Source: Candidatus Eiseniibacteriota bacterium
Lineage (GTDB): Bacteria > Eisenbacteria > RBG-16-71-46 > JABDJR01
DNA: 64,000 nt
Direction of reading: 5' to 3'
NCBI GenBank assembly: GCA_963783375.1
Contig: CAWANH010000028.1
Location: 1,184,001-1,248,000 of the forward strand
The position numbers and the translations under genes are program-made. A model generated the notes under the pieces. It was not told where the DNA came from and did not search any database. It worked only from the letters and a program-made list of their open reading frames with translations. Shown here piece after piece: positions 28,831 through 51,511 of the stretch. The first letter of the stretch is position 1. Every line of letters starts with the position of its first letter.

Positions 28831-29802
28831 ATGAGATTCATTCGTGTCGGATCGGCCCTGGGTATCCTCATGACGCTCGGACTCATGATCGCCCCCGGGC
28901 TCGCGGTTTCGGCGGGCAAGGACGCGGAGCCGGCGGCGGTGCTGGCGGTGGCCGCGGGAAACGTGTCCGTCGTCCGAGGCGCCCAGACGCTCTCCGGGAG
29001 CTTCGGGGCCGCGCTCCAACCGGGCGACGTGGTGGAGACCGGCGCGGACGCCAAGGCCGCGGTGCTGTTCGAGTCCGGACAGATGATCGAGCTGGGACCG
29101 GGAAGCCGCATCACCATCGGCTCCATCCCCGGGAAGGACGACGAGGGAAGCCTCATGGCCCAGGTGCCCGACGCCCTTTCCGGGAACCTCGGGCGCTTCG
29201 CCCAGACCTCGGGAGACGGGGGGCTTTCCGCGCTTCCGACCCTGCGCGGCGGGACGGCCGACGACAAGCCCGTCCCGCTCGCTCCCCGAAACTCCCTCAT
29301 CCGGCCGGGCGTCGCGCCCGAGTTCCGCTGGAAGCCGGTCGAGGACGCCATGGACTACACGGTGATCCTCACCGGGCCAGGCGCGGCCGCGGGGCGGCAC
29401 CGGGCCTCCGACGCCTCCTGGACTCCGGAGGCGGGGTTCGAGGCGGGGGAGAGCTGGACCTGGAGCGTGGAGGCGCTCACCTCCGACGGACCGGTGACCT
29501 CGGGTCCGGTGACCTTCGAGGTGGCCTCGGCGGAGACGGACGCCGAGGTGGGGGACCTGGCCAAGCGGCTGGATCCGCTCATGAACGGCGGCGACCCCAT
29601 CCGCAACGACGCCGCCCAGTACCTGATGGGAAGCTACTGCCGGAGCACCGGGTTCTACACCGATGCCATCGTCCGTCTCGAAGGCCTGGCCGAGCGTCAT
29701 CCCGATCGGAAGGAACTCCAGCGTGAGCTGGGGAGCCTCTACCAGGCGGTGGGGTTGAACGACAAGGCGGCCGACGCGTATCGCCGGGCGCTCAAGGATT
29801 GA
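28831..29802 (+). CDS. Secreted FecR-like / Ig-like / TPR protein
   Basis: GGAGG RBS; signal peptide; FecR-like beta motif (GDVVETGADAKAAVLF..G...LGPGSRI); linker PTLRGG; PEFRW...Y.V...WTWSVEA Ig-like strand pattern; C-terminal TPR (RELGSLYQAVGLNDKAADAYRRAL). Confidence 0.75.
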   Translation: MRFIRVGSALGILMTLGLMIAPGLAVSAGKDAEPAAVLAVAAGNVSVVRGAQTLSGSFGAALQPGDVVETGADAKAAVLFESGQMIELGPGSRITIGSIPGKDDEGSLMAQVPDALSGNLGRFAQTSGDGGLSALPTLRGGTADDKPVPLAPRNSLIRPGVAPEFRWKPVEDAMDYTVILTGPGAAAGRHRASDASWTPEAGFEAGESWTWSVEALTSDGPVTSGPVTFEVASAETDAEVGDLAKRLDPLMNGGDPIRNDAAQYLMGSYCRSTGFYTDAIVRLEGLAERHPDRKELQRELGSLYQAVGLNDKAADAYRRALKD

Positions 29803-32800
29803 CCGTGACCGGGTCGCCGGGGGGGCGAGGTCCCGCGGGCCCGCGACGACTGAAGGCGGGGCCGGGCCCCTCGGTTCTGATCCTCGTCCTCGTCCTGGGC
29901 CTGGTCGGACTTCTCTGTGGCCGCAAGGGTGAGGGGGCGGGGACGCCGGACCCCCTCGCTCCCTTCGCCGGTCTGGCCCCGGACAGCCTCGCCGCCCGCC
30001 TCGCCGAGGCCCCGGCGGAGCACGCGGCGCGCTTCGATTCCCTCCTCGCCACCGGGGCGCTGACCGACCCGGCGCGGCGGCCGATCCTGGACGCGGTCGC
30101 CGCCGCCTACCTCGACGCCACCGGGGACTCGCTGCTGCTCGGGGATCTCGCCTTCTGCGAAGGCCGGCCGGAGAGCACGCGCACGGCCTGGGCCGCGGCG
30201 GTGGCCGCCGATCGGCGCGGGGTATTGCTCCGGGGAAACGGCGATTATGCCGGCTCCGCCGAGGCGCTTCGCGAGGCCGCCCTCGGCTACCGCGCGGTGG
30301 GTCATCTCCGGCGGGAGGCGGTGGCCTGGGGAACCCTGGGGGTCTCCCTCTGGTACACCGGGGACTTCAACGCGGTGGTCGATGCCTACCGGAACGCCCT
30401 CGACGCCCGCGAACGCCTGGGCGATCCGGTCCTGGTCGGGCGGACCCTGAACGGCCTCGGCTCGGCCAACCTTCAGCTCGGGAACTACGTCGAGGCGCTC
30501 CGCTGGTACGAGCGCGCCCGCGCGGTTCGGGAAACGCTCGGAGACGCCAACGACCTCGCCACCACCCTGGCCTACATCGGAAACGTCCGCTACCGGTTGG
30601 GGGACCTGATCGGGGCCCGCGAGGGCTACGCCGAAGCGCTCCGGGTTCTCGGCCCGAACGCGTCCTCCAAGTCGCTTTCCACCGCCCAGGTGGGCCTGGC
30701 CAACGTGATGTACGACCTCGGGGAGTACGAGGAGGCCCTGGCCCTCTACCGGGAGGTGGTGGAGCGGGCCGAGGCGGCGGGCGACCGGCGGCTGGTCGGG
30801 CTCACCCGGCAGAACCTCGCCCGGACCCTCACCGCGATGGGGGACTACGCCGGCGCGCTCGCCACCTTCGACCGGGCGCGGGAGGAGCAGGAGGCCCTTG
30901 GAGACCAGCGCCAGCTCGCGGTCACCCTGAACTCCCTGGGAAGCACCTACCGCCTCCTGGGCGACGTGCCCCGGGCCCTGGAGGAACTCAAGCGGGCGGA
31001 GAAGACCGCGGCCGGGGCGGGGGACGAGCTCACCCGGGCCAACGTGCTCTTGAACCTGGGCCTCGCCTACTCGGACTGGAAGCTACCCGAGCGGGGGCTC
31101 GAAGCCTGCGAACAGGCCCTGGCGCTGCACGAGACCCTGGCCGACACCGTGGGAATGCGCGGGGCGCTGGTGGGAGTCGGCATCAACCAGTGGATGCTCA
31201 AGGATTACGAGGGCGCCCTGGGACGGTTTCGCCGGGCCCTGGAGCTGGATCGCGCCCGGGGGCTGGACTCGAACGCGGCCGGCGACCGGATCCAGATCGG
31301 CAACACCCTCACCGACATGGGCGAGTTCGGGAAGGCGCTGGACGCCTATCGCGAGGCGGCCGCGGCCGGTGAGGAACTCGGAAGCCGCGATCTTCTCTGG
31401 CCGGCGTTCCTCGGGATGGCCGACGTCCACGAGAAGACCGGGGATCTCGCCCGCGCCGCGGACAGCAACGACCGGGCGATCGACGCCCTGGAGAGCGTCC
31501 GGGGTCACGCGCTCCCGGAGGAGACCAAGTCCGAGGCGCTCAGCCGCCGGGCCTACGTCTACGAGGCCCAGGAGCACGTGCTGGCCAAGCTCTACGCCGG
31601 GACCGGGGACCTGGACACCGTCCGCCGCGCCTTCGCGGTGGCCGAGCGGGGGAAGGCCCGGGCGCTCCTGGACCTGTTGGCCGAGGGACGGATCGACCCC
31701 GACGCCGGGCTCGACTCGGCCTCGGTGGGCGAACGCCGGCGCCGGGAGCGCGAGCTCACCGCCGCCCGCTACCGCCTGCGCCTGGCCACCGGCTCCGGAG
31801 TGGACGCCGACAGCCTGAAGACCCTGAAACGGGAGGTCGGCGACCGGGAGGGTGCCTACCAGGAGCTGCTCGAGCGGTTGCGGCTCCAGAACCCGAGCTT
31901 CGCCGCCGCCGATCCCGGCCGCCCCAAGAGCCTGTCCGAGATCCGCCGGGACCTCCTGAAGGACGACCGCGGGGTGCTCCTGGAGTACGCCCTGGGCGAC
32001 TCCGCGTCCTATCTCTGGGTGGTGACCCGCTCCGGGCTCGCCTTTCATGCGCTCCCTCCGCGGGCCGAGGTGGAGGGGGAGGTGCAGAAGCTCCGGGCGG
32101 GCCTGGTGGACCCGGGAACCGCCGGTGACGCCGCCTACCTGGACGCCGCCCACCGGCTCTACGCCATGCTCCTGAGCCCGGCGGCCACGGAGCTGGCCGA
32201 CGCCCGCGCGGTCGTCGTGGTCCCCGACGGCGCGCTCAACTTCATCCCCTTCGACGTGCTTCTGACCTCGGCCGCGGTCCCACCGGATCCCGACCTGGAC
32301 CCCGGGGCCCGGAATCGGTTCTTCGCCGGGCTCCCGTACGCGCTTCGCGGAGACCGCATCCGCTACGGCCCGTCGGCCACCACCCTCGCGGTGCTGGCGG
32401 GGGAGGAGTCGGCGCGGAGGAGGGGTCCGCGTCCGCCCATGGATCTCCTGGCGGTGGGGGACCCGGTGTTCGCCCCGCCTGAGGCCTCGGGGGAGGCGGA
32501 CTCGACCGGCAATGTGGGCCTTCGCGCGGCGGGGCTCGCGCCCCTTCCCTACACCCGCGAAGAGGTGAAGGAGATCGGAGCGGCGTTTCCCCCCGGGCAC
32601 ACCACCCTCCTGCTCGGGGACGAGGCGCGCGAGAGCACCCTGGCCGAGCCGGGCTATCTCGCCCGCTACCGAATCCTCCACTTCGCCACCCACGGCCTCA
32701 TCGATGAACGTCAGCCCGAGCGGTCGAGCCTCGCCCTGGCCTATCCCCGCGATCCCGCCGAGGACGGCTACCTCCACGCCGCCGAGATCTATCGCCTGCG

Positions 32801-33119
32801 CCTTCGCGCCGACCTGGTGGTGCTTTCCGCCTGCGAGACCGGCCTGGGGAAGACGCTACGCGGCGAAGGGGTGATGGGGCTTCCCCGCGCGTTCTTCTAC
32901 GCCGGGGCGCCGGCGGTGCTGGTGAGTCTGTGGAGCGTGTCCGATCGCTCCACCGCCCGGCTCATGTCCGCCTTCTATCAACGGCTGGAGGGAGAGGGGC
33001 TCTCGGCGGACGCGGCCCTGGCCGGAGCCAAGGAGAGCCTCAGGACCGGAGACCGCTTCGCCCACCCGTTCTACTGGGCTCCGTTCGTGATGATGGGGGT
33101 CGGAAGCGTGTCCCGGTAA
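29799..33119 (+). CDS. TPR-CHAT domain protease (clan CD) with N-terminal signal/TM segment
   Basis: Long TPR array; AERGKAR, LLEYAL, VPDGALNFIPF, catalytic ILHFATHG (32691) and LSACETG (32832), SLWSV, HPFYWAPF. Start TTG 29799 overlapping the upstream stop, or GTG 29805. Confidence 0.93.
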   Translation: MTVTGSPGGRGPAGPRRLKAGPGPSVLILVLVLGLVGLLCGRKGEGAGTPDPLAPFAGLAPDSLAARLAEAPAEHAARFDSLLATGALTDPARRPILDAVAAAYLDATGDSLLLGDLAFCEGRPESTRTAWAAAVAADRRGVLLRGNGDYAGSAEALREAALGYRAVGHLRREAVAWGTLGVSLWYTGDFNAVVDAYRNALDARERLGDPVLVGRTLNGLGSANLQLGNYVEALRWYERARAVRETLGDANDLATTLAYIGNVRYRLGDLIGAREGYAEALRVLGPNASSKSLSTAQVGLANVMYDLGEYEEALALYREVVERAEAAGDRRLVGLTRQNLARTLTAMGDYAGALATFDRAREEQEALGDQRQLAVTLNSLGSTYRLLGDVPRALEELKRAEKTAAGAGDELTRANVLLNLGLAYSDWKLPERGLEACEQALALHETLADTVGMRGALVGVGINQWMLKDYEGALGRFRRALELDRARGLDSNAAGDRIQIGNTLTDMGEFGKALDAYREAAAAGEELGSRDLLWPAFLGMADVHEKTGDLARAADSNDRAIDALESVRGHALPEETKSEALSRRAYVYEAQEHVLAKLYAGTGDLDTVRRAFAVAERGKARALLDLLAEGRIDPDAGLDSASVGERRRRERELTAARYRLRLATGSGVDADSLKTLKREVGDREGAYQELLERLRLQNPSFAAADPGRPKSLSEIRRDLLKDDRGVLLEYALGDSASYLWVVTRSGLAFHALPPRAEVEGEVQKLRAGLVDPGTAGDAAYLDAAHRLYAMLLSPAATELADARAVVVVPDGALNFIPFDVLLTSAAVPPDPDLDPGARNRFFAGLPYALRGDRIRYGPSATTLAVLAGEESARRRGPRPPMDLLAVGDPVFAPPEASGEADSTGNVGLRAAGLAPLPYTREEVKEIGAAFPPGHTTLLLGDEARESTLAEPGYLARYRILHFATHGLIDERQPERSSLALAYPRDPAEDGYLHAAEIYRLRLRADLVVLSACETGLGKTLRGEGVMGLPRAFFYAGAPAVLVSLWSVSDRSTARLMSAFYQRLEGEGLSADAALAGAKESLRTGDRFAHPFYWAPFVMMGVGSVSR

Positions 33120-33144
33120 GCCCATGGTCAATCTGGAACCAAGC

Positions 33145-33173
33145 TTGACTCAGTCGTCATCCTATTGTAATCT
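33145..33173 (+). promoter_or_regulatory. sigma70-like promoter TTGACT-N17-TAATCT
   Basis: Near-consensus hexamers with exact 17-bp spacing, ~295 bp upstream of 33469. Confidence 0.65.
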
Positions 33174-33468: not shown

Positions 33469-34068
33469 ATGCCTTCCCGACTGGTGAGAACCGCCCTCTT
33501 TCTGCTGTTCGGCATCGCTCTCGGTCTGGCGTCCGACGCTTCCGCCACCACGGTGGCGAAGCTCGGCCTGCGCGAGATGACCGCGGCGTCCTCCACCGTC
33601 ATCCACGGCACCGTGGTCTCGACCCGGTGCCGGTGGAACGATGACCGGAGCCTCATCCTCACCGACGTGCGGGTGCGGGTCGACGACGCGCTCAAGGGGA
33701 GCGCGGCGGCCACGGTCACCGTGGTCCAGCTCGGCGGCGCGATCGGAAAGCTCCAGGTGGACGTGCCCGGAGCCGCGGCCTTCCGGCCGGGGGAGGAGGC
33801 GATCCTCTTCCTGGTGCCGGATTCCCGGGGCGATCTCCACGTAGCGGGTCTCTCCCAGGGGCGGTTCGAGGTGGTGCGAAACCCGCGCTCCGGGAACCGG
33901 GAGGTTCTGGGGCTCGAGGAGGCGATCCCGGCGGCCGGAGCGCCCGCCGTCGGTGGCGTGCAGGTGCTCTCCGCGCCCGCCGCACCCACCGGGCCGGTCC
34001 CCCTGGACCGGTTCCTCGGTGATATTCGCTCCCTGATCCGGGACGTCGACGCCCGGGGAGGGAAGTGA
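33469..34068 (+). CDS. Secreted protein resembling the TIMP/OB-like partners of bacterial matrixins
   Basis: GAGGAG RBS; signal peptide; TTV...L.EM..S..VIHGTV, ILTDV..RV...LKG, GG.IG...VPG...F.PGEE.ILFL, GLSQGRF. Ends 2 nt before the giant gene. Confidence 0.7.
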   Translation: MPSRLVRTALFLLFGIALGLASDASATTVAKLGLREMTAASSTVIHGTVVSTRCRWNDDRSLILTDVRVRVDDALKGSAAATVTVVQLGGAIGKLQVDVPGAAAFRPGEEAILFLVPDSRGDLHVAGLSQGRFEVVRNPRSGNREVLGLEEAIPAAGAPAVGGVQVLSAPAAPTGPVPLDRFLGDIRSLIRDVDARGGK

Positions 34069-34070
34069 TC

Positions 34071-37000
34071 ATGAAGACCCGGCTTTCCCTTCTCCTGACC
34101 GTGCTTTTCACCCTCACCGCCTTCGGGATCGCCTCGGCCCAGTTCATTCCTCTCGTCACCCCGCCGCTGGACGATCCCGGAAGCGCCTTCGGGGCCACCA
34201 TCGGCGACTACGACGGCGACGGCCTCCCCGACATCTACCAGGTCCGCGGAAGCGGGGAGTCGAACCTCCTCATCCTGCAGACGAGCCCGGGCGTGTTCAC
34301 CGACGCCGCCGTCCCCCCGCTCGACGACACCGGCCCGGGTTCCGCGGCCGCGTGGGCCGACATCGACAACGACGGGGACCTGGACCTCTTCCTCTGCGAG
34401 AACGGCGCCCCCAACCGTCTCTTCAAGAACGACGGTGGCCTGGTCTTCATCGACATCACCCCGCCGGGGATGGACGATGCCGGGTTCGCGTTCGCGGCGG
34501 TGTGGGGGGACTACGACAACGACGGCGCGGTGGACCTCTACCTGGCCAACAACCTGGGCCAGGACCGCCTCTTCAAGGGGGACGGCGCCGGCGGGTTCAC
34601 CGACGTCTCGCTCACCTCCGGGATCTTCGTCGGCTCCTCCGACTCCCGGGGGGCGAGCTGGGGGGACTACGACGGGGACGGGCTGCTCGACCTCTACGTG
34701 GCGAACATCGGCGGTTCGAACTTCCTCTACCACAACGACGGGGGCGGAACGTTCAGCGAGGTCACCGGCACCCCCCTCGACGATCCCGCCTCCAGCGTGG
34801 GCGTGGCCTGGGGGGACTACGACAACGACGGCGATCCCGACCTCTACGTGGTCGAGCTCAACGATCCCAACCACCTCTTCCGGAACGACGGCGGCGGATC
34901 CTTCGCCGACGTGAGCGTGGCGGCGGGGGTGGACGATCCCGGGACCGGTTCCTGTCCGGCCTGGGGGGACTACGACAACGACGGGTACCTCGACCTCTAC
35001 GTGACCAACAACGGCGACAACGTGCTCTACCGGAACAACGGGAACGCGACGTTCAGCCCCGACGCCGGGTCGGGCACCGAGGACCCCGGCGCGGGCAATG
35101 CCGCGGCCTGGGGCGACATCGACCTGGACGGCGACCTGGACCTCTACCTGGCCAACGGCGGCTCGCCCAACGTCCTCTACCAGAACGACGCCACCGGCGG
35201 CAGCCACTGGCTGGAGCTGACCCTGGACGGGAACCTCTCGAACCGCGCGGCGATCGGAACCCGGGTGGTGCTGGTGGCCGGCGGGCTTACCCAGACGCGC
35301 GAGGTCTCGGGCGGCTCCGGGCTGGGCTCCCAGAACGCCCTCACCGTGTCCTTCGGGCTCGGGGGCGCGGCGACCGCGGACCGGGTCGAGATCCACTGGC
35401 CGAGCGGGATCGTGCAGGTCCTTACCGATGTGGCCGCGGACCAGCTCCTGAGCGTGACCGAATCCGGGGCGACCTTCGCCAACGTGACCGCGCCCCCGCT
35501 GGACTACAACGGCTCGAGCCGGGGGGTGGCCTGGGGGGACTACGACAACGACGGCGACCTCGACCTCTATCTCATGGCCGAGGCGTCGGGTGGAGACAAC
35601 CGGCTCTACCGGAACGACGGCGTGAGCGGCTTCGCGGACGTCACCAGCGGTCCCCTGGTGAACACGAGCTTCGGCGCGGCGGTGACCTGGGCCGACTACG
35701 ACAACGACGGCGACCTCGACCTCTGCCTGGCGAACTACACCGGGGTCAGGCTCCTCAGGAACGACGGCGTCTCCGGGTTCGTGGACGTGACCGCGTTCCC
35801 CATGGGAATCGACCACGGCACCCTGACCCTGGCCTGGGGGGACTACAACAACGACGGCCTCCTGGACCTCTTCCTGGCCAACAGCAACTACTCCGACCCG
35901 AATCAGCTGCTCCTGAACCAGGGGAGCGACGTCTTCGTGGACGCCACTCCCGGGGTTCTCGCCAACATCGGAAGCAGCGGCGCCGCGGCCTGGGGGGATT
36001 ACGACGGGGACGGGGACCTGGACCTGTTCGTGGGCGGCCAGCTGCCCAACGACGCCCTCTACCGGAACGACGGTGGAGGTGTGTTCGTCGACGTCACCTC
36101 GCCTCCGCTCGACAGCTCCCTGAACACCTTCGAGGCGAACTGGGTGGACTACGATGACGACGGGGATCCGGACCTCTCGATCACCCGCCTCGGAGACACG
36201 GGCCTCATCTACCGGAACGACGGGGGCGGGACGTTCGTGGAAGCCACCCCTCCCGCGTTGACGGCGGCGGGAACCGCCCAGGACCGGACCGCCTGGGAGG
36301 ACTACGACAACGACGGCGATCTCGACTTCTACCTGGTGAACAACTCCTTCGGCGGCCGGAACGCCCTCTACCAGAACCTGGGCGGGGGGAATTTCGCCGA
36401 CGCCACCGCACCGGTGATCGCGGACACGGCCGCCTACGGTCTCGGCCAGGGCGGGGCCTGGGGGGACTACGACGGGGACGGTGACGCCGACTTCTACCTC
36501 TCCAACCAGGCGGGGAACCGCCTCTTCCGGAACGACGACATCTCCGGGAACCACTGGCTCCGGGTGAAGCTCCAGGGAACGGCGTCCAACCGGCTGGGGG
36601 TCGGAGCCCGGGTGCGGGTGACGGCGGCCGGGCTCGGTTCACGGACCCGTTACGTCCAGGACCAGTCCACCCGGGGCGCGGAGCCGATCGAGGCCCGCTT
36701 CGGCCTGGGGACGGCGGTGACGGTCGACACCCTGGAGATCCGTTGGCCGAGCGGTGTGGTTCAGACCCTGACCGGCGTGAGCCCGGACCAGGTCGTCTCG
36801 ATAACCGAGGTCGCGCCGCTCTTCACCGACGTGACCGGGACGACGGGCGACCTGGGCGACGCCGGAAACGGCGAAGGCGCGGCCTGGGGCGACTACGACA
36901 ACGACGGGGACGACGATCTCTTCCTCACCAACTTCGGCCAGGCGGACAAGCTCTTCCGGAACGACGGCGGGACCTTCGTGGACGTGACCGCGTCGAGCGG

Positions 37001-40000
37001 CCCGGTGGGAGACGTCGGAGGCAGCGAAGGCGCGGCCTGGGGCGACTACGACAACGACGGATATCCGGACCTCTACGTCTCAACCCACGCCGCCCCCAAC
37101 CGGCTCTACCACAACAACCAGGACGGGACCTTCAGCGACGTGACCGTCCTGAGCGGCGCGGTCGGCGATCCGGGGAACGGGCGGGGGGTGGCCTGGGCCG
37201 ACTACGACAACGACGGTGACCTCGATCTCTTCCTGGCCAACTGGAACGACAGCAACCGGCTCTTCCGCAACGACGCGGGAGTGTTCGTGGACGTCATCGG
37301 CACGACCCCGCTCGGCGACGACGGGGGCACCGGCGGCGCGGTGTGGGGGGATTACGACAAGGACGGCGATCCCGATCTATACACCACCGACGACGCCGGT
37401 CCGAACCACCTCTACCGGAACGACGGGGGGGGGACGTTCGCCGACGTCTCGGCCGCGGCCGGGGTCGACAACGCCTCCTCGAGCCTCGGCGCCAGCTGGG
37501 GGGACTACGACGGCGACGGCGATCTCGATCTCTACGTGACCACCGCCGGCGGCAACAACCTCTACCGGAACGACGGAGGGACCTTCGCGGACGTGGCCGG
37601 GGCAGCCGGGGTGGCCTACAACGGAGCCTCGGGGCAGGCGGCGTGGGGGGACTACGATCACGACGGGGACCTCGATCTCTACGTGACCAACGTCAACGAG
37701 CCCAACCTGCTCTACCGGAACGACGGTGGAGGGACGTTCGCCGACGTGAGCGACTTCCCGGTGAACGACCCGGTCTGGAGCCAGGGCGCGGCCTGGGCGG
37801 ACGTCGACGGGGATGGGGACCTGGACCTCTACCTGGTGAACGGGAACAGCGACGCCAACCGGCTCTTCCGGAACGAATCCGCGGGCGGAAACCACTGGCT
37901 GGGGGTCAAGCTCGAGGGCACGATCTCGAACGCGTCGGGGATCGGGGCCTGGATCGAGGTGTCGGACGAGGCGAACACCTACATCCGGGAGGTCGCCTCG
38001 GGAACCGGTCTCTTCTGCCAGAACTCGCTGGCGGCCGATTTCGGCCTCGGTCCCGCCGCCACCTCGATGGACGTGATCGTCCACTGGCCGAGCGGGCTGG
38101 TGCAGACCGTGAACGGCGTGATCACCGATCAGGTCATCACCGTCGTGGAGACCCCGGAGCCGGGGGTGGCCTACGTCACCCCCAGCACCCATCCCAACCG
38201 CGGTGTCCTTTCCCTGACCGTGCACGGGGCGGACCTGGACAGCTCGCCCCCGGAGGCGATGCTGATCGCCACCGGGGAGCCCCCGGACACCCTGTTCGGC
38301 GCCCGCGTCGGCGACGCGGCGACGGATCAGGCCCTGTTCGACTTCGACCTGAGCGGGAGCCCCGAGCCCACCTACTACAACCTTGTCGTGACCACGAGCG
38401 GCGGTACCGGCTTCCTCCAGGCCGCGGTGGTGCTCTACGCGGACCCGGTGAAGCTCATCCGATCCACCACCTCCCCGGCCTTCTCCGAGCGCTTCCCGTC
38501 GTGGTCGCCGCCCGGATCGGGGACGGACAGCCTGCTCTTCATCTCCAACCGGGCCGTGAGCACCGATCTCTTCCTGAAGCCGGTCTACGACCTGGACACG
38601 GTGACGCTTCCCCGGCTCACCGACGGGTTCGAGGCTCGCTCGCCCGACTGGTCGCCGGCGGCGGACTCCGTGGTGTATGCCAACATCGACAACGGGAGCC
38701 TCTACGTGCAGTCGGTGAGCGGCGGCACGGCCGCGCCCCTCACCGCCGGATTCAACGACCTCCGTCCGGCCTGGTCCCCGGCCGGCGGGCAGGTGGTCTT
38801 CGAGCGCCGGATCGTGGATCACGACATCATCGTGCGGGTGAACACCGCCGGAACCGGCTCGACCAACCTCACGTCGAACGGGGCCGGCGACTTCGATTTC
38901 CAGCCCGACTGGTCTCCCGACGGGGCGACCGTCGTCTTCGGGCGGCATCTGAACGGCGAGACCGGGAACAGCATCGTCACCATGTCCTCGACGACCGGGG
39001 AGGCCGGCGGGGTGACCCCCCTGATCCCGGTGGACGGGTTCAACTACCTCACCCCGGTCTGGTCCCCGGACGGGAAGTGGATCGCCTTCGCCTCGGACCG
39101 GTCGGGGAACTACGACCTGTGGGTGATGGACGCCCGAGGCCCCGGTTTCGGCCTCTACCAGGTCACCACCGATGGGGCCAACGACGCCGAGCCCACCTGG
39201 AGCCGGGACAGCCGCTCCATCGCCTTCGTCTCCACCCGGGGCGGGCTCGAGGACATCTACGTGGCCTCGAACCTTCCGATGGATGTGGACACCGACGGGG
39301 ACGGCCTCCCCGACGGCGTGGACGCCTGCCCCACCGAGGCCCCGCTCCTGGGCCAGGTGGACCGGGACTACGACGGTTGCCCCGACTCGACCTCGAGCTT
39401 CCGCTTCGTGAAGTTCTGGTCGGCGGACCAGCTCCCGGTGAACTACGAGATCGACGCCGCCGGCGATCCCCGGATCGGCGACGGGAGCGACCTGACCGAA
39501 GTCGCAGCCGGTTTCAACGCCTGGACCGCGGTGCCGGGGGTGCCCCTGACCGGGGGACAGGTGACTCCGCCGGGGGGCGCGCTTTCGAACGCGGTTTCCG
39601 GCGACGGCCGGAACTCCATCACCTTCTCGGACCCCGACGGGTTCCTCTACGGCATCCTGGCCATCACCCCGACCACCACGGTGACCGGGGATACCATGAT
39701 CGGGGGGCGGACCTACCGTCCGGGAGAGATCGTGGACGCGGATATGCTGTTCAATACCGCGTTCTTCGAGTTCTCGACCCCGACCTTCAATCCGGGACCC
39801 CAGGCCTTCGACATCCGGAGCGTGGCCACCCACGAGTTCGGCCATTTCTTCGGGATGTCCCACTCCTCGGTCTCCACCTCCACCATGTTCTACGTGGTGC
39901 CGCGGGGAACCGGGGCCCGGAGCCTGGAAGAGGATGACCTGGTGCTCACCCGGCGTGGATACGCGAGCACCCCCCCGGTGCTGAGCGCCGAGGGACGGAT

Positions 40001-43000
40001 TCTCCGGGGCGAGGACGGGGTGACCCCGGTGGTGGGAGCGGCGGTCTACGCCGTCTCCGACGCCTCGGGCGACACCCTGCAGATGACGATCAGCGGTATG
40101 GACGGGGTCTACCGCTTCTACGAGGTCTCGGAGGACTTCAGGATCTGGGTCCAGCCCCTGGACGGCGGGGCCGAGGTGAACGGCCTCACCGCGGGCGCGG
40201 TGAACGGCGCCCTGGCCACGGTGGCCGAGACCGACTTCCTGGGCGAGTACTGGGACGGTCCGGCCGAGACCAACAGCGACTTCGGGGGAACCGGGGCGGT
40301 GGTCACCGTTCCCGGGTCGGCGGTAACCGGTGCCGACGTTCTCACCAACCCCGATCTCACCGGGCCGGTCGTCGTGGACCAGACCCCGGCGGACGGGGCG
40401 CTGGACGTCCCCGCGGTGGGGATCCTCTCGGCCAAGTTCAGCGAGAAGATCGACCGGAACAGCATCTCCGGGAGCACGGTCTCGCTTCGCGACGTCGCCA
40501 CCCTGACCGGGGTGGGGGGGGCGGCGGCGCTCCTCCAGCGGGACAGCCTGCTGGTCTTCACCCCATCCGCACCCCTGGCCTACAGCACCCAGTACCAGTT
40601 CACCCTGGGTCCGGGGCTCACCGACAAGTTCGGGAACCCCATGGCCTCGGCGGCGGTGATCACCTTCACCACGGAAGCGGCGCCGCCGGTCACCCTGACC
40701 TCCGCATCCCCCCCCGAGGTCCCGGTGGGGGCCACCCTGCTCCTCTCCGGGACCGGGTTCGATCCGAATCCGGCCGGGAACCAGGTGCACTTCCCCGGCG
40801 CGTCTCCGGTGACGCCGTTCGGCGCCACGTCCGTTCAACTCGCGGTGACGGTTCCGGCCGGGGCGACGAGCGGGAACGTCACGGTGACCGTGGGCGCCCA
40901 GAGCAGCGGCCCGATCGCGGTGACCATCGTTCCCCGGAAGGCCCCGCCCCAGGGGAACCTCGTGGACGAGACCGCCCTCGGGGCCGATCCGCGGAAGATG
41001 GCCATCGAACCGGACGGTTCCTTTGTCTACGTGGCCACCGATCACGGGGTGGCCGCGGTGGACGTGCGTCCGGCGGGCGGATCGTACCTCGCCGTGACCC
41101 CGATGGCGGTTCCCGGCGGGTGCGTCGGCGTGGCGAGCCTTCCCGACGGTCTTCATGCGATCGCGGTGGGGGGCGCCCCGGCCAAGCTCTATCTCATCGA
41201 CACGAACCCGGCCAGCGGGTCGTTCAACTCGATCGTGGACGAGGCCGGCCTGGTGGACCCGCCCCTCGGCGTGGCCTCGATCCCCGCGAGCGGGGACGTG
41301 CTCGTGGCCTATGCGGACCGGGTGGTTCTCCATTCCGGCGGCTCCGGCGCCCCCCTGGGCCAGGAGCTTCGCCAGTGGAGCGCGGCCGGGACCGGGTTCC
41401 TCGGCGATCTCGCGGTCTCGGCGAACGCCGGGGAAGCCTACGCGGCCACGACCGGCGGCATGGTGGCGGTGCTGGGATTCGGATCCCTGGAAGGGATCGT
41501 GACCCAGCTCTCGAACGGGCCCTACCCACGGGAGATCGGCCCGCTACCCGCCGGCGGCTTCCTGGCCGCCGAGGGCACCGGGGTACTCCGGCGCTTCGCT
41601 GCCCGCGGCCCCCAGACCCGGAGCCTGGTGCTCTCCGGCGGATTCAGCGGCATCGCGGTGTCTCCGGAGGGCGAGTTCGCCTACGCGGCCAACTTCACCC
41701 TGAACCGGATCGACATCCTGGACGCGCGCGGAACCGGTCTCGCCTCCACCGGGACCTTCGCCACCGACGTGGATCCACGGGACGTGGCGACCGGAAGCGG
41801 CGGGCGGTACGTCTACGTCATCACCGGGGGGGACAGAAGCTCCAGGTGTTCGACACCGTGAGCGGTCCGCACGTGGACTCCGTGTTCCCGCCTTCGGGAC
41901 GCGGGGGCACGCTCATGACCCTGGGGGGCTCGGGCTTCGATCCCGTCCCCGCCAACAACACGGTTCTGATCGCGGGGGTATCGACCACGCCGCTGTCGGT
42001 CGAGTCGGACGGACGGTCGATGCTGATCGACCAGCCCGCGGCGGCGGCCTCCGGGCCGGTGACCGTGACCGTGGGCGGGCAGACCTCCAACGGCGTCGAG
42101 TACCGGGTGGTGAACCGGGCCAACGCCGGGAACCTCGGGCTGGCCGCGCAACCGGACTTCGGCGGCGCCTCCCTGGACCGGGTGCTGGAGTCGCCCACCG
42201 GCGCGTTCCTGTTCGCGCTTCACGCCGACGGGGCGCTGTCCGTCCTCCGGGCCGATCCGTCCAAGGCCGACTTCCTCCGCGCGGTCGAGGAACTGGCCCC
42301 CGCCGTCTCGGGGCTGAGCGGCTCCGGACCGATGGCCGCCTCCCCCGACGGCCGCAAGCTCTACGTGGGCGACCCCGCCGGGTCGATCGCGGCGTTCACC
42401 GTGGACGAGAACGGAACCGTCCCGGTGGTGCGGGCGGGCAGCGTGTCGGTCGGCGGCGCCCCCGTGACCGCAGACGCGACCGGGCTGGCGTTCTCCCCGG
42501 CCGGGGACCGGCTCTACGTGTCCTCCGACACCGGCCAGTTCCTGGAGGTCGACGTGGCCGCCGACTCGCTCATGAGCGCAACCGTGTTCCCCAATCCGGC
42601 TCTCTCGGTGGCGGTCGACCCGCGGGGAGGCGCGGTGTACGTGGGCACGAACGGGTCATCTCCCCTGGTCGAGGTGATGGACATGAACCCCATGTCGGCG
42701 CTCTACCGCACCGCGGTCGCCTCCATCCCGCTGAGCGGGCAGTTCGGATCCGACCAGCTGCTCGTCACCCCCGAGGGATCGAGGCTTCTTGCGGTCACCG
42801 AGGAGGTCGGCCCGACGAGCCTGTTCCGGCTCTGCGCGGTGGATATCAACCCGGCCAGCGGGACCTACCGGACCGAGGTCGGATCCGCGGCGATCTCCTC
42901 GGGGAGCCTGCCCTTCGTGGCCCTCAACCACACCGGAGCCGTGGTGTTCGTGGTCGATCCCACCGGGCAATCGATCCGCTCCGCGGATCCGTTCTCCCTC

Positions 43001-45937
43001 CTCCCCGGGTCGGGCTCGATCCTGCTTCCCGCCTTCTCGGCGACGCACTCGCTGGCGCTTTCCCGGGACGACTCCCGGCTCTACGCGCAGGGGCCGGGAT
43101 CGACGATCCTCGCCCTGGACGTGACCCAGGCCGACGGCCTGCAGCTGGTCTCCGGGGACGGACAGGTCGGCGTGGCCGGTGAGCCCCTGCCCGCGCCGCT
43201 GGTGACCCGGGTGGTCGGCGCGGATCCGGAAGGGACCCTGGTCACCTACCAGGCAACCCCCACCTCCGGGGACTTCGGATATCCGGACCAGCTGGCCTAC
43301 ACCGCCGCGGACGCCAACGGGCTCGCCCAGGCGACGTATACCACCGGCCCCGGAAGCACCCTGGCGGACACCGTGACGGTCCGGACGGTGGGTGGCGGAG
43401 TCAATTTCCTGATTCCGGTGCTTCCCGACACCAGCCTGGCTCCGCCCCAGATCGTTTCGGTATTCCCGAATCCGGCCGCGCCGGGCACGCCGGGGGTCAA
43501 CACCTACATCGCGGTGGACTTCTCCAAGTCCATCGATCCGGCCTCGGTGAGCTCCTCCACCTTCGCGGTCCGCCCCGCCGGTGGGAGCGCCCTGACCGGG
43601 ATCTACACCTACGCCAACCGGGGCCGCCGGGTGGTGTTCAAGTCGAGCGCGCCCCTCGCCTACAGCAGCGCCTACGAGTTCGAGTTGACCTTGGGGCTCC
43701 GCGACTACAACGGGAACAACCTGACGAACCCGGGTACCTATCCCTTCACCACCGCCGCCCCGGCCCCGCCGGTGCTCTTCGCGGCGGATGCCCCCGCCGC
43801 CCGGGCGGGATACCGGATCGTGCTCTCCGGGTCCGGCTTCGCCCCCGTGGCCGGAAACAACACCGTCCTCTTCGGCGCGGTGTCCGCGGTCCCGGTCCAG
43901 GCCGACCCCGGGGCGCTCCTGCTGGGCGTGCCCCTGGGCGCGGTCTCCGGACCGATCCGGGTGGTGGCGGGGTCCGACACCTCGAACGCGATCCCCTTCA
44001 CCGTGCTCGCCCCGGTGTCCGCCCCGGTGAACGAGGTGGTGGCCAGCGTGGACGTTCCGGTGAGTGGACAGCAGATCGCGGTGACCCCGGACGGAAGCCG
44101 GGCCTACATGACCGCGCCCTCGGCGGACGCGGTGGTGCCCCTGGTGATCGGCGACCGGGTCTCCGAGCCCCAGGTTCCGGTAGGTCAGCACCCCTTCGGG
44201 GTCACGACCTCCCCCAGCGGCGACCGGGTCTACGCGAGCAACTTCCTCTCCAACACGATCTCGGTGATCGATGCGGTGCCTTCCCACCCCTCGTTCCACC
44301 GGGTGATCGCCACCATCCCCACCGGTCTCCAGCCTTCGGGGATCGCCGCCCATCCCGACGGCCGGACCCTCTACGTGTCCAACTACGGGGACAGCACCCT
44401 GAGCGTGCTCGACACCGACAGCACCAGCGCCTCGGTCTACTCGGCCAGGGCGTCGGCCCCGTTGGACGGATCCACCCAGTCGGTGGTGGTGACCCCCGAC
44501 GGGGGACGGGTGGTGGTGGGAACGAGCAACGGGCTGATCATCCTCGACGCCGGCGACCTCACCGCCAGGGCTGCGGCCCCGATCGACGGGGGCAGCCAGT
44601 CGGTGGTGGTGACGCCGGACGGCGGGTTGGCGGTGGTCCTCACCACCACCCACCAGCTGGTCCTGGTGGACATCATCCCCGGGAGTCCCACCGAGGGCCA
44701 GGCCAAGGCGGCGGCGCCGGTGGACGGGAGCAGCCAGTCGGTGGTGGTCTCCCCCGACGGCGCGTTCGTCTACGTCACATCCTCGAGCGGCTTCGTCGCC
44801 GTCTACCAGATCGTGCAGACCGGCGGGGCGGCGGCCCGGGCGGACGGGGTGAGCTCCGGGCTCTCCCTGGTGTTCGTGAGCCAGATACAGGTCGGGGAGA
44901 ACCCCACCGGGTTGACCTTCGATCCTTCCGGCTCCGGGCTCCTCCTGGTGGTGAACTCCGGGTCCAAGACCGTGAGCTTCATCAACGTCAGCGCGACCCT
45001 GAGCCGCGTGGTGGCGACGTCGAACGTGACCCCGAACACGCTGAACCTGAACTCGAACGGGAAATACGTCAAAGCGTCCCTCCAGTTCCCCGATCCCTAC
45101 ACCCCGGACCAGGTGGCGCTTTCCAGCTGCCGGCTCGAGGGGGTCGTGGAACCGGACACCGCCAAGGCCTCGATCGGCGATTTCAACGGGGACGGGGTGC
45201 CCGAGCTGTCGCTCAAGTTCGGCCGGCAGGCGCTCTTCGATGTCCTCCAGCCGGGACAGGAGGTCCCGGTCACGGTGACCGGGCTCGTGGCCGGCCATCC
45301 GTTCACCGCCACCGACACCGTCCGGGTGCTTCGGCCCCACATGGTGAAGCCGAAGAAGAACGACGTGCTGGTGGCCGGGGCGGAAACCGAGATCCGCTGG
45401 CTGCCGTCCCCGGACGGGCCGTTCGACCACGTGGACCTCTACTGGAGTTCGGACAACGGGGCGAGCTGGGACACCGTGGTGGTGGGGACCCCGGACGATT
45501 CGTCCTATGCCTGGACCGCTCCCGAGGTCGAGTCCACGGCGTGCCTGCTCATGGTGGTGGAGTTCAACGCCAAGGGGAAAGTGATGGGGATCGAGCTCAC
45601 CGCCGACCCCTTCGTCATCGCCCACATCACCGGAGAGGGTCCGCGGGAGATCCCGGCGCGGTTCGCGCTGCTTCCCGCCGCCCCCAACCCGTTCCGATCC
45701 TCGACCCGGATCGCCTTCGATCTGCCGCGGGACGGAAAGGTCAGCCTCCGGGTCTACGGTCTCGACGGATCCCTGGTGCGGGTCCTGGCCGAGAACCGGC
45801 CGTTCCCCGCCGGAGAGCACGGGATCCAGTGGGACGGCGTGGACGAGAGCGGCCGCCGGGCGGCGAGCGGGGTCTATTTCGTGCGGATCCACGCCGGGAG
45901 CGAGCTCGCGGTGCGAAAGGTGATCCGCATCCAGTAG
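34071..45937 (+). CDS. Giant secreted multidomain protein (~3,955 aa): 3x[FG-GAP propeller+ASPIC/UnbV], PD40 propeller, matrixin metalloprotease, Ig/IPT domains, YVTN-like propellers, FlgD-Ig tail; frameshift at G7 41826-41832
   Basis: Many WGDYDNDGDLDLY repeats; three HWL...SN..IG....FGLG...WPSG domains; PxWSPDG repeats; HEFGHFFGMSH (39831-39863) plus STMF Met-turn. Continues in the 41120-45937 frame as GQKLQVFDTV... and ends PNPF...WDG...SGVYFVRI. Confidence 0.88.
44444..44761 (+). repeat. Three near-identical propeller-blade repeats (A[RK]AxAPxDGxxQSVVV[TS]PDG)
   Basis: Copies start at 44444, 44564 and 44702 and share CCAGTCGGTGGTGGT at DNA level. Confidence 0.8.
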
Positions 45938-45946
45938 GTGGTGGGA

Positions 45947-45977
45947 GCCGTACCGCCGCGGGCCGCGGTGGTACGGC
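45947..45977 (+). terminator. 14-bp hairpin right after the giant gene stop (3' protective or terminator hairpin)
   Basis: GCCGTACCGCCGCG-ggc-CGCGGTGGTACGGC with one G-U pair; no U-tract. Confidence 0.5.
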
Positions 45978-46061
45978 GTCGCCCTCCGCATCCCGGCGCG
46001 CGATGGCGAACCGGGGCAAGGGGACGGCGTCGCCCTCCGCGACCGGTGGCCTTGCTGTGGG

Positions 46062-46103
46062 TCGGCCCGGGGATTAGTCTTCCCGGGGCCGGCCCCTTTT
46101 TTT
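46062..46103 (+). terminator. Intrinsic terminator-like hairpin + T7, overlapping a TTGCTG-N17-TAGTCT promoter
   Basis: TCGGCCCGGGGA-ttagtct-TCCCGGGGCCGG then CCCC and T7 (46097-46103). Confidence 0.5.
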
Positions 46104-46118
46104 GCATCGGAGGAAGGC

Positions 46119-47917
46119 GTGTCCGAACGGAAAATCTCCCACTTCGAGCTGGAAACGCTCCTGGGAGAGGGCGCCATGGGTCGGGTCTATCGCGCCCGGG
46201 ACACCGTGCTGGACCGGCCGGTGGCGATCAAGCTCCTCTCCGCCCGCACCCTCGGCGACGCCTCGTTCCTGGAGCGCTTCCGCCGCGAGGCCCGGCTCGC
46301 CGCCCAGCTCAACCATCCGAACATCGCCACCATCTACGCCTTCGGGGAAGAGGGGGGCGAGGCCTACATCGCCATGGAGTTCGTGGAGGGGGAGGACCTG
46401 GGCGAGCGGTTGAAGCGCGACGGCCCGCTCCCGGTGGCCGACGTGCGCCGCTTCGGGCGCCAGGCCGCCTCGGCGCTGGCTGCCGCCCACGCCCGGGGCA
46501 TCGTCCACCGCGATATCAAGCCCCCGAACCTGATGATCACCCCCCAGGGCGACATCAAGGTCATGGACTTCGGAGTGGCCCGTCGCTCCGGGGACACCGA
46601 GCTCACCATGGCCGGGGCGCTGGTGGGGACGGCCAACATCATGGCCCCCGAGACCATCGAGGGTAGGGAGCCCACCCCGGCCTCGGACCTCTTCTCCCTG
46701 GGATGCGTTCTCTACGAATGTCTGGCCGGGCAACCCGCCTTCCCCGGCCGCGAGCTCATGACCGTCCTGAACCACGTGGTGAACCGCGAGCCGACTCCGG
46801 TGGAGCAGTTCCGGCCGGACACCCCGCCGGAGCTGGCCGCCCTGATCGCCGGCCTCCTGCGAAAGGACCCCGTGGCGCGGACCGGTCCCGCCCGGGAGGT
46901 GGAGCGGGCGCTCTCCGACGGAACCCTGTCCGGAGAGTGGAACGCGGGCGAGACCATGGCGATCGCCCCCGCCGGGGCCACGATGGTGCTCCCGACCGGA
47001 GCCGGGGCGACGGGGGCCCCGGGGTCGGAGGAGGGGGCGGCGACGTCCGAGCCGGGGGCGGCGGCATCCATCGAGACGGCCGGAGCCGGAACGGACTTCG
47101 GCGCGGTTCGCCGCGGGCGGCGCCTGCCCGCGATGTGGCTCTTCGTCATCCTCGCGGTCATGATCGCGGTGGGGGCGGGGGTCGTGTGGGTGGCGCTTCG
47201 CGGGGCGAGCCATGCGGGGGGGAACCGGGAGCTGGCGGTAACCCTGACCACCCAGGCGGTGAAGCTTGTCCAGAAGAACCCGGGTTCCGCCCCGATCCGC
47301 GACCAGGCCGAGGGCACCTATCGCGAGGCCATCGAAGCCGACTCCACCTACGCCGTTCCCCGGAACAACCTGGGCCGGATCCTCTTCGAGAAGGGGCAGG
47401 TGGACGAGGCGGTCACCCAGCTCCGGGCCGCCGTCCGTCTGGATCCCGAAAACGCCGCCGCCGAAGCCAACCTGGCCGACGCGCTGGAGGCCCAGGGGAA
47501 TCGGGACGCGGCGGAGACCGCCTATCGCGCGGCGGTCCGGCTCGACCGCGCGCACAAGGTGCCGGCGGCCCCCAACAACCTGGCCCTCCTCCTGATCGAG
47601 GGGGGAAGGGGGGGGAGGCCCTGGCCGTGCTCGAACAGGCCGAGAGCGACTACCCGGTCCTCGGCGGGTCCGCGGCGTTCTGGAAGAACTACGGCCTGGC
47701 GCTTCGAGCGTCGGGCCGGGAGGCGGGAGCGGACTCCGCGTTTGCCCGCGGGGCGGCCATCGACCCGGCCTATATTGCGGTCAAGGCGGGGGAGGCCGCC
47801 GACCGTGGGGACACCGGAGCGGCCCGGGCGCTCTGGCTCGCGGTCTCCGAGGCCTCGGACCCCGGGCAGGCGGCCCGGGCCCGGGAAGCGCTGAAACGAC
47901 TTGGGGATGCGCACTGA
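46119..47917 (+). CDS. Hanks-type Ser/Thr kinase with TM helix and extracytoplasmic TPRs (~599 aa); frameshift in G-tract 47600-47615
   Basis: LGEGAMGRVY, VAIK, HRDIKPPN, DFG, GT..MAPE, SDLFSLG; TM WLFVILAVMIAVGAGVVWVAL; TPRs continue as EALAVLEQ...EALKRLGDAH in the frame ending 47917. Confidence 0.9.
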
Positions 47918-48044: not shown

Positions 48045-48941
48045 GTGAGACGACTCGGACGGATCGCCCTGTTCCTTGCCCTCCTCGTCTCGAGCGCCGC
48101 CGCCCCGGCCCTGGCCCAGCTCGAAGACAACCTCTCCGCGTATGCCGACGAGACGGCCAAGGGCTATCTCATGCCCCTGCAGGAGGCCTTCGGCCAGGCC
48201 CTGAACAGCAACTTCTACACCTCGGCCCACATCCCCCGGACGGGGCTCCGCTTCCGGGTGGAGATCCGGGCCATGTCGGTCCTGTTCAAGAACGCCGACG
48301 ACACGTTCACCGCCGCCACCGGCGGGGATTTCGAACCCCCACAGACGGTGGAAGCGCCTACCGTGGTCGGTTCCGGGCAGTCGGTTTCGGTGACGGGGGA
48401 CGGGGGGACCGAGTTCGTGTTTCCGGGGGGATTCGATCTCAGCTCGTTCACCATCGGGGTGCCGCAGATCACCGTCGGTTCGTTCGCGGGCACCGAGGCA
48501 TCGGTGCGCTGGATCGCCTTCGACACCGGCGACTCGGAGATCGGCAACATCTCCCTCTTCGGGATCGGCGTCCGACACAACATCTCCCAGTACCTGGTGG
48601 CCGCGCCGGTCGACCTGGCCGCGGGGGTGTACTACCAGAAGCTGAACGTGGGGGACGATCTCCTCAAAGCCAACTCGTTCACGGTGGGCGTCCAGGGAAG
48701 CCGGGACTTCGGCGCGATCACCCCCTACGGCGGCCTCTCCCTGGACACCTTCGCCTTGAAGGCCAACTACACCGCGACCGCGGGGTCGGTGGACCAGGAC
48801 GTCCACCTCGATTTCGGCTCCAGGAAGAGCCTCCACCTCGCGGCGGGGGTGGGGCTGAATCTGGGTGTGGTCCATCTGAACGTGGGCGGCGATATCTCGG
48901 ACCGGGTCGGCGTGAACGCCGGGCTCGCGGTCGGACTGTAG
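48045..48941 (+). CDS. DUF6588-like outer-membrane beta-barrel protein
   Basis: Signal peptide; AKGYLMPL..AFG..LNS..Y.SA, PQITVG, FGIGVRHNI; amphipathic C-terminal strand VNAGLAVGL. Family recalled, not searched. Confidence 0.6.
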   Translation: MRRLGRIALFLALLVSSAAAPALAQLEDNLSAYADETAKGYLMPLQEAFGQALNSNFYTSAHIPRTGLRFRVEIRAMSVLFKNADDTFTAATGGDFEPPQTVEAPTVVGSGQSVSVTGDGGTEFVFPGGFDLSSFTIGVPQITVGSFAGTEASVRWIAFDTGDSEIGNISLFGIGVRHNISQYLVAAPVDLAAGVYYQKLNVGDDLLKANSFTVGVQGSRDFGAITPYGGLSLDTFALKANYTATAGSVDQDVHLDFGSRKSLHLAAGVGLNLGVVHLNVGGDISDRVGVNAGLAVGL

Positions 48942-48950
48942 GAGGCGGCC

Positions 48951-49562
48951 ATGAAACGAAGCATCGTAGTGCTCCTGGCGCTGACCGGCGCGCTGTTCTC
49001 GTTGACCGCGGACAGCTGCTTCCTCTCCACCAAGACGGTCGAGGTGCCGGTGCGGGGGAGCGGGGACCTGCTCTTCACCACCCAGGGGAACAACCCCGAC
49101 GACGCGGACAGCAAGCTCATCGACTTCGCCGGGCTCATCGAGGACCTGGAGAAGGAGAGCGACTTCGATGCCCTGGTGAGCGCCCACATCGAGAACGGCT
49201 ACTGGCGGGTGGCGCGAAACGGCGGCGCGGCCACCACCATCGTGCGCGGCTCGATCACCGTCCAGCGGGAGAGCTCGGCCGCCCCCGGCGTGTCGCTCAT
49301 CAGCTACACCGGCGTGGCGATCGCCTCGGTGCTGGGGGACTTCAAGGTGGCGCCCCTGAACAGCCAGGGGGTCGATCTCCTGAATCAGGGGTTCGACCAG
49401 TACCTCCAGGCCAGGGCCCTGGGCCAGCCTCTTCCCGATCTACGGTACCGATTCTTCTGGAACAGTCACTCCGACACCGTGCCGGTCGATTTCGACTGGG
49501 AGGGGAAGGTGAAGTTCACCCTGGTCGGGCTGACCAAGGTGGACGTGCCGGAGGTGTTGTAG
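48951..49562 (+). CDS. Hypothetical lipoprotein
   Basis: GGAGG RBS; MKRSIVVLLALTGALFSLTADSC; beta-rich body. Confidence 0.75.
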   Translation: MKRSIVVLLALTGALFSLTADSCFLSTKTVEVPVRGSGDLLFTTQGNNPDDADSKLIDFAGLIEDLEKESDFDALVSAHIENGYWRVARNGGAATTIVRGSITVQRESSAAPGVSLISYTGVAIASVLGDFKVAPLNSQGVDLLNQGFDQYLQARALGQPLPDLRYRFFWNSHSDTVPVDFDWEGKVKFTLVGLTKVDVPEVL

Positions 49563-51507: not shown

Positions 51508-51511
51508 CGCC

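Follow-up and report, generated by a model that had tools for sequence, protein, structure and literature searches.

A co-inherited cassette joining a predicted exported CHAT protease, an MtxA-type protein, a TIMP-fold protein, a giant matrixin protein and a receptor kinase in Candidatus Eiseniibacteriota

How might a protease placed outside the cytoplasmic membrane pass a signal to a receptor kinase, and which of the genes standing around the two belong to such a system? The question is raised by a 64,000-nucleotide stretch of DNA (the window) from a Candidatus Eiseniibacteriota bacterium (assembly GCA_963783375.1, contig CAWANH010000028.1, positions 1,184,001 to 1,248,000), in which sequence and open reading frame (ORF) reading place seven genes at positions 28831-49562, all on the + strand as originally predicted. 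The host genome (G000) is 4.7 Mb in size, has 69% GC and is 97% complete, and the window sits on a 2-Mb contig. In gene order, Pfam assigns the products to tetratricopeptide repeats (TPRs), TPR plus CHAT, no family, a multi-domain giant, kinase plus TPR, DUF6588 and no family. The original prediction took all seven to form an envelope proteolytic cascade read out by the kinase. A cascade of this kind remains the best reading and has gained a candidate cut site, Arg139 of the first gene product (here called P1), but its seven-gene scope does not hold, and cleavage and receptor binding are steps that we infer. The unit is made up of five genes (28831-47917, about 19 kb), which are inherited together.

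A co-inherited cassette of five genes

In a profile search with P1 that scored 10 candidates per genome, 38 of the 206 genomes in the phylum, the host among them, gave a strong match (E of 5e-36 or better). The DNA around P1 was read in all 37 relatives, 34 of which form the main P1 clade (families f1 and f10). Many of the P1 contigs are short, so that linkage counts are lower bounds. Within 22 kb on the same contig, P1 is accompanied by the kinase gene in 23 of the 34 main-clade loci, by the gene for a protein resembling tissue inhibitors of metalloproteinases (TIMP) in 15 and by a CHAT domain in 9. At least one of the three stands beside P1 in 33/34 loci, the sole exception being a contig that ends 5 bases past P1, and the kinase directly follows P1 in 14/34. 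The genes have been reshuffled into at least eight orders and orientations (with C for CHAT, T for TIMP-like, G for giant and K for kinase), among them P1>C>T>G>K, P1>T>G>K, C<G<T|K>P1, C<|P1>K, C>P1>K, G>P1><C, G><C|K, G>K><C and an arrangement in which C+T+G is separate from P1+K.

Co-occurrence was scored in the 89 genomes of f10 with a separate threshold for each profile (P1 1e-36, kinase 1e-37, CHAT and TIMP 1e-49); related genomes are not independent in these counts. Both the kinase clade and P1 are present in 27 genomes, the kinase only in 3, P1 only in 4 (in three of which locus reading found a kinase) and neither in 55. The corresponding numbers for the CHAT clade and the TIMP-like gene are 19 with both, 3 with CHAT only, 1 with TIMP only and 66 with neither, and for the CHAT clade and P1 they are 18 with both, 4 with CHAT only, 13 with P1 only and 54 with neither; in four of these 13 P1-only genomes (G045, G051, G114, G161) a different CHAT lineage adjoins P1. 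For sequences outside profile building, P1 is also present for 12/15 kinases and for 13/17 CHATs, and the TIMP-like gene for 14/17 CHATs. In f10 the block shares, for the most part, a single chromosomal location close to pyrR and glyQS, so that linkage there is partly shared descent. Because of this shared site and the relatedness of the genomes, the case for linkage rests on reshuffling and on block-wise loss: the cassette occupies different chromosomal sites in f1 and f10, and its gain and loss are patchy within genera. The gene-neighbourhood comparison across relatives thus bears out a single cassette whose five core genes are gained, lost and reshuffled together.

The last two of the seven genes are not members. 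The DUF6588 barrel (48045-48941, + strand) belongs to a family present in 61/206 genomes of the phylum, and in three relatives (G003, G004, G005) an RND operon runs directly into the barrel and the putative lipoprotein that travels with it (48951-49562, + strand), the five-gene block being absent from this empty site. The seven-gene unit was therefore rejected, and both genes, first proposed as parts of the system, are resident flank. The lipoprotein, which has no family match in Pfam, NCBIfam or a further scan, is also present in G001, where the cassette site holds this barrel-side gene and a kinase remnant and where P1 was not found. The remnant (L139:15200-16330) retains the first kinase-domain residues followed by linker, transmembrane segment and TPRs, the catalytic domain being deleted. 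Clustering of neighbour ORFs revealed no sixth conserved partner or kinase target and no recurring sigma or defence gene near the cassette, all other recurring genes being housekeeping genes. As was first noted, no Cas gene (Cas7-11/Csx30) or gasdermin gene is visible in the block (Pfam, NCBIfam and PADLOC) or in most flank genes (Pfam), the rest of the genome not having been searched for them, and the block has no zf-HC2 or sigma match in Pfam or NCBIfam.

The protease, its candidate substrate and the receptor

The P1 gene (28831..29802, + strand) encodes 323 amino acids (aa), for which the AlphaFold2 (AF2) model has a predicted local distance difference test (pLDDT) value of 83. The model shows a signal segment, a truncated FecR-like beta domain (36-95), a linker (100-140), an Ig/FN3 domain (145-231) and TPR helices (234-322), with the linker at pLDDT <50 and hence predicted to be disordered. 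The best fold match in the PDB is MtxA (4Z29; Foldseek E 3.5e-7, template-modelling score 0.63 on the target) at 17% identity, and in the Atlas look-alike clusters of P1, DUF928/MtxA families are found on 21-26% of members. The Pfam models for MtxA and DUF928 are not among the 8 family matches of P1, nor among the first 25 of the 27 families matched by the 34 members. PF04773 (FecR) matches 12 of the 34 weakly and the window P1 not at all. A complete FecR domain, a transmembrane anchor and an extracytoplasmic function (ECF) sigma partner were not found for P1, whose beta domain spans only 36-95. The first label of this protein, FecR-like/TPR, thus gives way to MtxA/DUF928-type. A sequence search of the PDB with the P1 profile returned TPR and FN3 matches only, and a whole-library search was swamped by FN3-repeat proteins, yielding additional P1 homologues without gene context.

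The sole invariant residue of the linker is Arg139 (codon 29245..29247), which is kept in all 34 main-clade sequences (alignment A2) and in 94/94 profile-aligned homologues, some of them redundant. It is followed by Ser or Gly in 29/34 sequences, and the linker consensus reads G-L-x-A-x-x-x-[LM]-R-[GS]. In Anabaena, the CHAT protease HetF cleaves PatU3 at Arg117-Ser118 and most changes of the flanking residues are tolerated (PMC9457339). An arginine followed by a small residue in a predicted disordered linker resembles this site, making Arg139 a candidate for the CHAT cut site in P1. MtxA itself has a signal peptide, its gene precedes that of a CHASE2 adenylate cyclase, and trypsin cuts the protein down to an Ig and TPR fragment of residues 142-313 (PMC4439547). 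This fragment matches the Ig-TPR half of P1.

The protease gene (29799..33119, + strand; about 1,106 aa, start codon uncertain) encodes a TPR array and a CHAT domain matching PF12770 at 242 bits against a curated cut-off of 24 (E 9e-72). The intact dyad of the original prediction is present as His965 (codon 32691-32693) and Cys1012 (codon 32832-32834) and is kept in 33/35 aligned CHATs. A PDB search with the domain returned weak separase matches only. By hydropathy, an N-terminal hydrophobic segment preceded by about 25 residues ends in Cys, and CHATs with intact N-termini likewise begin with a hydrophobic segment. The protease is therefore predicted to be exported, with TPRs and CHAT domain on one side of the membrane. 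Hydropathy also goes some way towards the original view that all seven products are exported or membrane proteins, since such a segment is predicted at the N-terminus of six and internally in the kinase. An exported CHAT is not new in itself: DdvA carries a periplasmic TPR-CHAT with an intact dyad (PMC11506125), which also overturns the statement that characterised bacterial CHATs are cytoplasmic. A CHAT was found in 47/61 related genomes, suggesting that exported TPR-CHAT proteases are common. The loci do not share one CHAT lineage; this was considered and rejected, since a domain tree, with weak deep support, sets the CHATs of G045 and G114 and of the distant P1 clade apart. One clade CHAT (L127:8780-11842 in G159, where P1 was not found) has lost both catalytic residues. 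A second kinase-CHAT pair of the host genome (L110:7556-12624, contig C29) consists of a kinase with DUF4384 followed by a TPR-CHAT.

The kinase (46119..47917, + strand; about 600 aa) has the layout of a receptor kinase, with a Hanks Ser/Thr kinase domain (VAIK, HRD and DFG motifs), a single transmembrane segment and an external TPR domain. The linked kinase domains (n=32) group in a single clade (SH 94) that excludes 19 other G000 kinases and three further rows; the outgroup of this tree comes mostly from one genome. A complex prediction for P1 (30-323) with the kinase ectodomain of the relative G002 scored 0.02 and 0.11 (mark 0.32) and was not used either way. The promoter-like pairs of the original prediction are present before the TIMP-like gene (TTGACT-N17-TAATCT, 33145..33173, + strand) and before the kinase (TTGCTG-N17-TAGTCT, 46052..46080, + strand), and both are kept in G002; neither received a score from a consensus scanner. 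The kinase-type motif lies upstream of 18/30 related clade kinases against a shuffled mean of 0.08, the pattern having been chosen after viewing the same upstream sequences. The separate internal promoters look real, and with them operon structure by itself accounts less easily for the linkage having been kept.

From these parts, a mechanism can be proposed that falls a little short of an even chance: cleavage of P1 after Arg139 by the exported TPR-CHAT would be sensed by the membrane kinase, with its external TPR domain serving as the reader. All parts of the cassette are presumed to be exported. The protease would be switched on through its own TPRs, the probable stimulus being the state of the giant metalloprotease at the surface or of the TIMP-fold partner, whose genes CHAT tracks most closely. 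Cleavage in the disordered linker would release the Ig-TPR half of P1, or its N-terminal part, as a ligand, and the kinase ectodomain may then read this product, activating the kinase and turning an extracellular cut into a phosphorylation signal. The giant and its TIMP-fold partner would likely be trigger, output or both.

The TIMP-like call of the original prediction was confirmed at the level of fold. The exported 199-aa protein (33469..34068, + strand) has an AF2 model with pLDDT 86.5, its best fold matches are agrin NtA, TIMP-2 and TIMP-1 (E 2e-4 to 4e-3), and all of the first 12 matches listed are NtA, TIMP or NTR (OB-type NTR fold). Animal TIMPs chelate zinc through an N-terminal Cys and carry disulfides; no N-terminal Cys was found here, the predicted mature start being Thr in 20/21 aligned sequences. 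The Gly-Gly-Arg at the C-terminus of the TIMP-like proteins was given no weight, since it probably results from the overlapping ribosome site; the stop of the gene overlaps the start of the giant gene. The giant (34065..45937, + strand; about 3,950 aa) contains three FG-GAP/ASPIC units, a PD40 propeller, matrixin, Big_5, IPT, further propellers and an FlgD-Ig tail. The core of matrixin, Big_5, IPT, propellers and FlgD-Ig is conserved among homologues and the N-terminal part is variable (FG-GAP/ASPIC, NHL, MAM). Its PF00413 match is above cut-off with HExxHxxGxxH and a Met-turn, and the zinc motif (39831-39863) is intact in 21/21 homologues. A cysteine-switch prodomain is expected of matrixins, and none is visible by eye in the giants, in which a DxDxDG/Cys repeat precedes the matrixin domain; small matrixin homologues begin right after the signal segment (by eye). 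It may be that the TIMP-fold protein holds a prodomain-less matrixin in check. A Listeria metzincin cuts the TIMP-like protein encoded beside it (PMC8235301). In loci L043-L046 a TIMP-like gene is directly followed by a small matrixin (380-930 aa), most with an FlgD-Ig tail, and there is no CHAT, P1 or kinase. A metagenome scan with the TIMP-like gene returned 3 short loci, two of which have CHAT directly upstream.

The giant of about 4,000 aa and its matrixin domain agree with the original prediction, but the gene is not a single frame in this assembly: the frame changes at a G7 run (41826..41832), the two parts being 34065-41861 and onwards to 45937. The kinase frame changes in a G run at 47600-47615. 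The relative G002 (94-96% identical) has one extra base at both breaks and reads through, so that its kinase has a continuous tail, and the giant of G006 is a single open frame of 4,046 aa. Short-read contigs of runs X3 and X4 carry an extra G at the giant break, and a near-identical contig of run X1 is one base longer over 47482-47820, the region of the kinase break. Both breaks are most likely homopolymer assembly errors; a pseudogene reading was rejected as unlikely, an apparent shift in the G002 kinase being an N gap. Elsewhere in the window, an Lhr helicase (11249-15708, - strand) is likewise split over two frames, probably by an assembly indel. The cassette is flanked upstream by a membrane-fusion protein and two RND transporter genes (18967-28366) and downstream by RtcB and an M1 peptidase (49569-53554). 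At 55396-58708 (- strand) lie two overlapping CarboxypepD_reg ORFs, one with BsuPI and one with an FlgD-Ig tail, possibly one frameshifted gene.

Exchange of the receptor between P1 clades

A distant P1 clade comprises three genes of the phylum (G012, G046, G061) and two further loci. In all five of its scanned loci a CHASE2-SpoIIE gene stands directly after P1, with a CHAT gene or fragment nearby, and only here does a CHASE2 gene adjoin an MtxA-type gene as in the mtx operon. Loci L112-L117, L073 and L075 show a row of one or two CHATs, one or two P1 paralogues and a CHASE2-SpoIIE phosphatase, with the linker motif R-[SD]-W. Two loci (L077, L079) combine a sigma factor gene, an anti-sigma-like protein ending in a transmembrane segment, xxRG and Ig, and a divergent TPR-CHAT, zf-HC2 being called in the L079 protein only. 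Such Arg-Ig anti-sigma loci (L077:8374-10173, L079:9868-11737, L076:2-535) represent a third output of the Arg-Ig unit.

In the main P1 clade, the kinase-TPR clade occupies the receptor slot. No CHASE2 gene was found in G000, G002, G006 or G007, nor on any main-clade P1 contig, and of the CHASE2 genes read in seven P1 genomes none adjoins a P1-type gene, a short FecR-only gene in G114 being the one exception. A CHASE2-Ser/Thr kinase fusion in G138 (L123:5256-7565) is unlinked to P1. In four CHASE2-type genomes outside the set, matches to the kinase ectodomain reach only E 5e-25 or weaker. The receptor slot is thus swapped between P1 clades, being filled by a CHASE2 phosphatase, an anti-sigma fusion or a kinase-TPR protein, which suggests that the conserved event lies at P1 and not at CHASE2. 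A general principle with a swappable receiver is more doubtful: an exported caspase-like protease would clip a conserved Arg before an MtxA-type Ig domain, a CHASE2 enzyme, an Arg-Ig anti-sigma or a TPR-ectodomain kinase would read the cut, and the present version would report on a TIMP-gated giant metalloprotease.

Rival readings and related systems

Beyond the shared descent and relatedness already described, several observations weigh against cleavage of P1 by CHAT as the signal to the kinase. The CHAT clade tracks the TIMP-giant pair (19/20 TIMP genomes of f10) more tightly than it tracks P1 (18/31). In four genomes (G133, G145, G146, G168) CHAT, TIMP and giant lie apart from P1 and kinase, and in G108 they occur without a detected P1. 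Eight f10 genomes with P1 and kinase, or with P1 at a contig edge, have no clade CHAT and no other CHAT beside P1 in the DNA covered. CHASE2 occurs elsewhere in 13/31 f10 genomes with P1 vs 7/58 of the others. Arg139 itself may be structural, as FecR domains end in an RGT motif, and the profile alignment is anchored on that Arg. The CHAT of G161 (L068:11368-13587), beside P1 and kinase, has lost its catalytic His. Separase binds the arginine at the P1 position of its own substrate through an Asp 41 residues after the Cys, and this position, in a weak alignment, is Ala in the window CHAT.

The separation of CHAT, TIMP and giant from P1 in these five genomes, the 19:3:1:66 distribution of CHAT clade and TIMP-like gene, the direct succession of P1 and kinase and the precedent of a Listeria metzincin that cuts its TIMP-like neighbour would all suit two sub-modules, in which CHAT matures or controls the giant or the TIMP-fold partner, while P1, left uncut, and the kinase make up a ligand-receptor module of their own that regulates the cassette. 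This reading, the main rival, is unlikely, though by no means negligible. At loci that lack the giant, CHATs of unrelated lineages adjoin P1. In the CHASE2 and anti-sigma versions a CHAT stays by the Arg-Ig unit, and the loci examined contain no matrixin giant. In f9 the TIMP-like genes occur without P1 in 32/41 genomes, with small matrixins in the loci read, and the clade CHAT was found in 0/41. A complex that signals without proteolysis, CHAT, P1 and kinase ectodomain binding one another through TPRs and the Arg serving as a binding determinant, would accommodate the G161 protein and the fact that autoproteolysis of DdvA is proposed only (PMC11506125); it is improbable given the dyad kept in nearly all aligned CHATs and the HetF-like motif in a disordered linker.

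Another idea is an anti-phage or anti-predator alarm, in which CHAT senses a foreign envelope protein and defence is set off by the kinase. It follows the proposal made for DdvA, whose periplasmic TPR-CHAT controls a defence island (PMC11506125). The patchy gain and loss within genera and the matches of the kinase domain to PADLOC PD-T4-6 models are in its favour, but these matches cover the generic kinase domain only and the neighbourhoods hold housekeeping genes in place of a recurring defence gene, leaving it a slim chance; the alarm is compatible with cleavage of P1 read by the kinase and differs in trigger and output only. Finally, the original prediction had cautioned that the adjacency could be coincidental, the genes being separately transcribed and, in this reading, kept together by descent. 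The promoter-like sites before the TIMP-like gene and the kinase and the common f10 site fit this, and it holds for barrel and lipoprotein. However, it is largely refuted and very unlikely for the five core genes: despite the real-looking internal promoters, these genes stand in eight or more orders, occupy different sites in f1 and f10, are gained and lost jointly in blocks, and co-occur even when unlinked.

If CHAT cuts P1 and the kinase reads the product, how does the cassette compare with systems already described? It resembles an mtx pair joined to a HetF/DdvA-type protease and is a member of neither system. The MtxA system of magnetotactic bacteria (4Z29, PMC4439547) shares the signal-beta-linker-Ig-TPR layout and likewise pairs an MtxA-type protein with a membrane signalling protein, a CHASE2 adenylate cyclase. 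The cassette, however, has a kinase-transmembrane-TPR receptor without CHASE2, and a CHAT, a TIMP and a matrixin partner that do not appear in the passages of PMC4439547, where the main text has 0 occurrences of CHAT. HetF is a CHAT protease with a transmembrane segment and TPRs that cuts one neighbour protein at Arg-Ser, but its TPRs are periplasmic and parted from CHAT by the membrane segment (PMC9457339), whereas those of the cassette are predicted to share one side with CHAT and the candidate substrate P1 is itself predicted to be exported. In Myxococcus xanthus, the extracytoplasmic TPR-CHAT of DdvA-DdvS, with its intact dyad, is the proposed start of a trans-envelope signal; DdvA, itself an anti-sigma fusion, would release an ECF sigma factor by self-cleavage (PMC11506125), whereas the cassette has no zinc anti-sigma domain or sigma gene and its output is a kinase. 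Craspase (Csx29-Csx30) has a TPR-CHAT that is regulated via its TPRs and cuts a neighbour in a flexible loop, but it is cytoplasmic and RNA-guided (PMC10028731), and no Cas gene lies in or beside the cassette block. The Listeria Mtz-Tim pair, a secreted metzincin gene adjoining a TIMP-fold gene as here, is small and phage-derived with Tim a lipoprotein (PMC8235301), whereas in the cassette the metzincin is one domain of a protein of 2,500-4,000 aa and both genes are linked to CHAT, P1 and kinase. No paper joining CHAT with DUF928 or MtxA was found in a search that left subscription journals mostly outside.

To our knowledge, MtxA/DUF928 proteins have no known function, and we know of no ligand for most bacterial kinases with TPR ectodomains. 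What these CHATs cut, what MtxA/DUF928 proteins do and what such kinases bind become questions testable with three small recombinant proteins, since the cassette points to a candidate substrate, to one residue for the cut and to a candidate receptor. A conserved event at P1 also matters for the CHASE2 form of the module, which is much more widespread. If the general principle of a cut at a conserved Arg is true, a bacterial receptor kinase would have a protein ligand that is set free by a protease.

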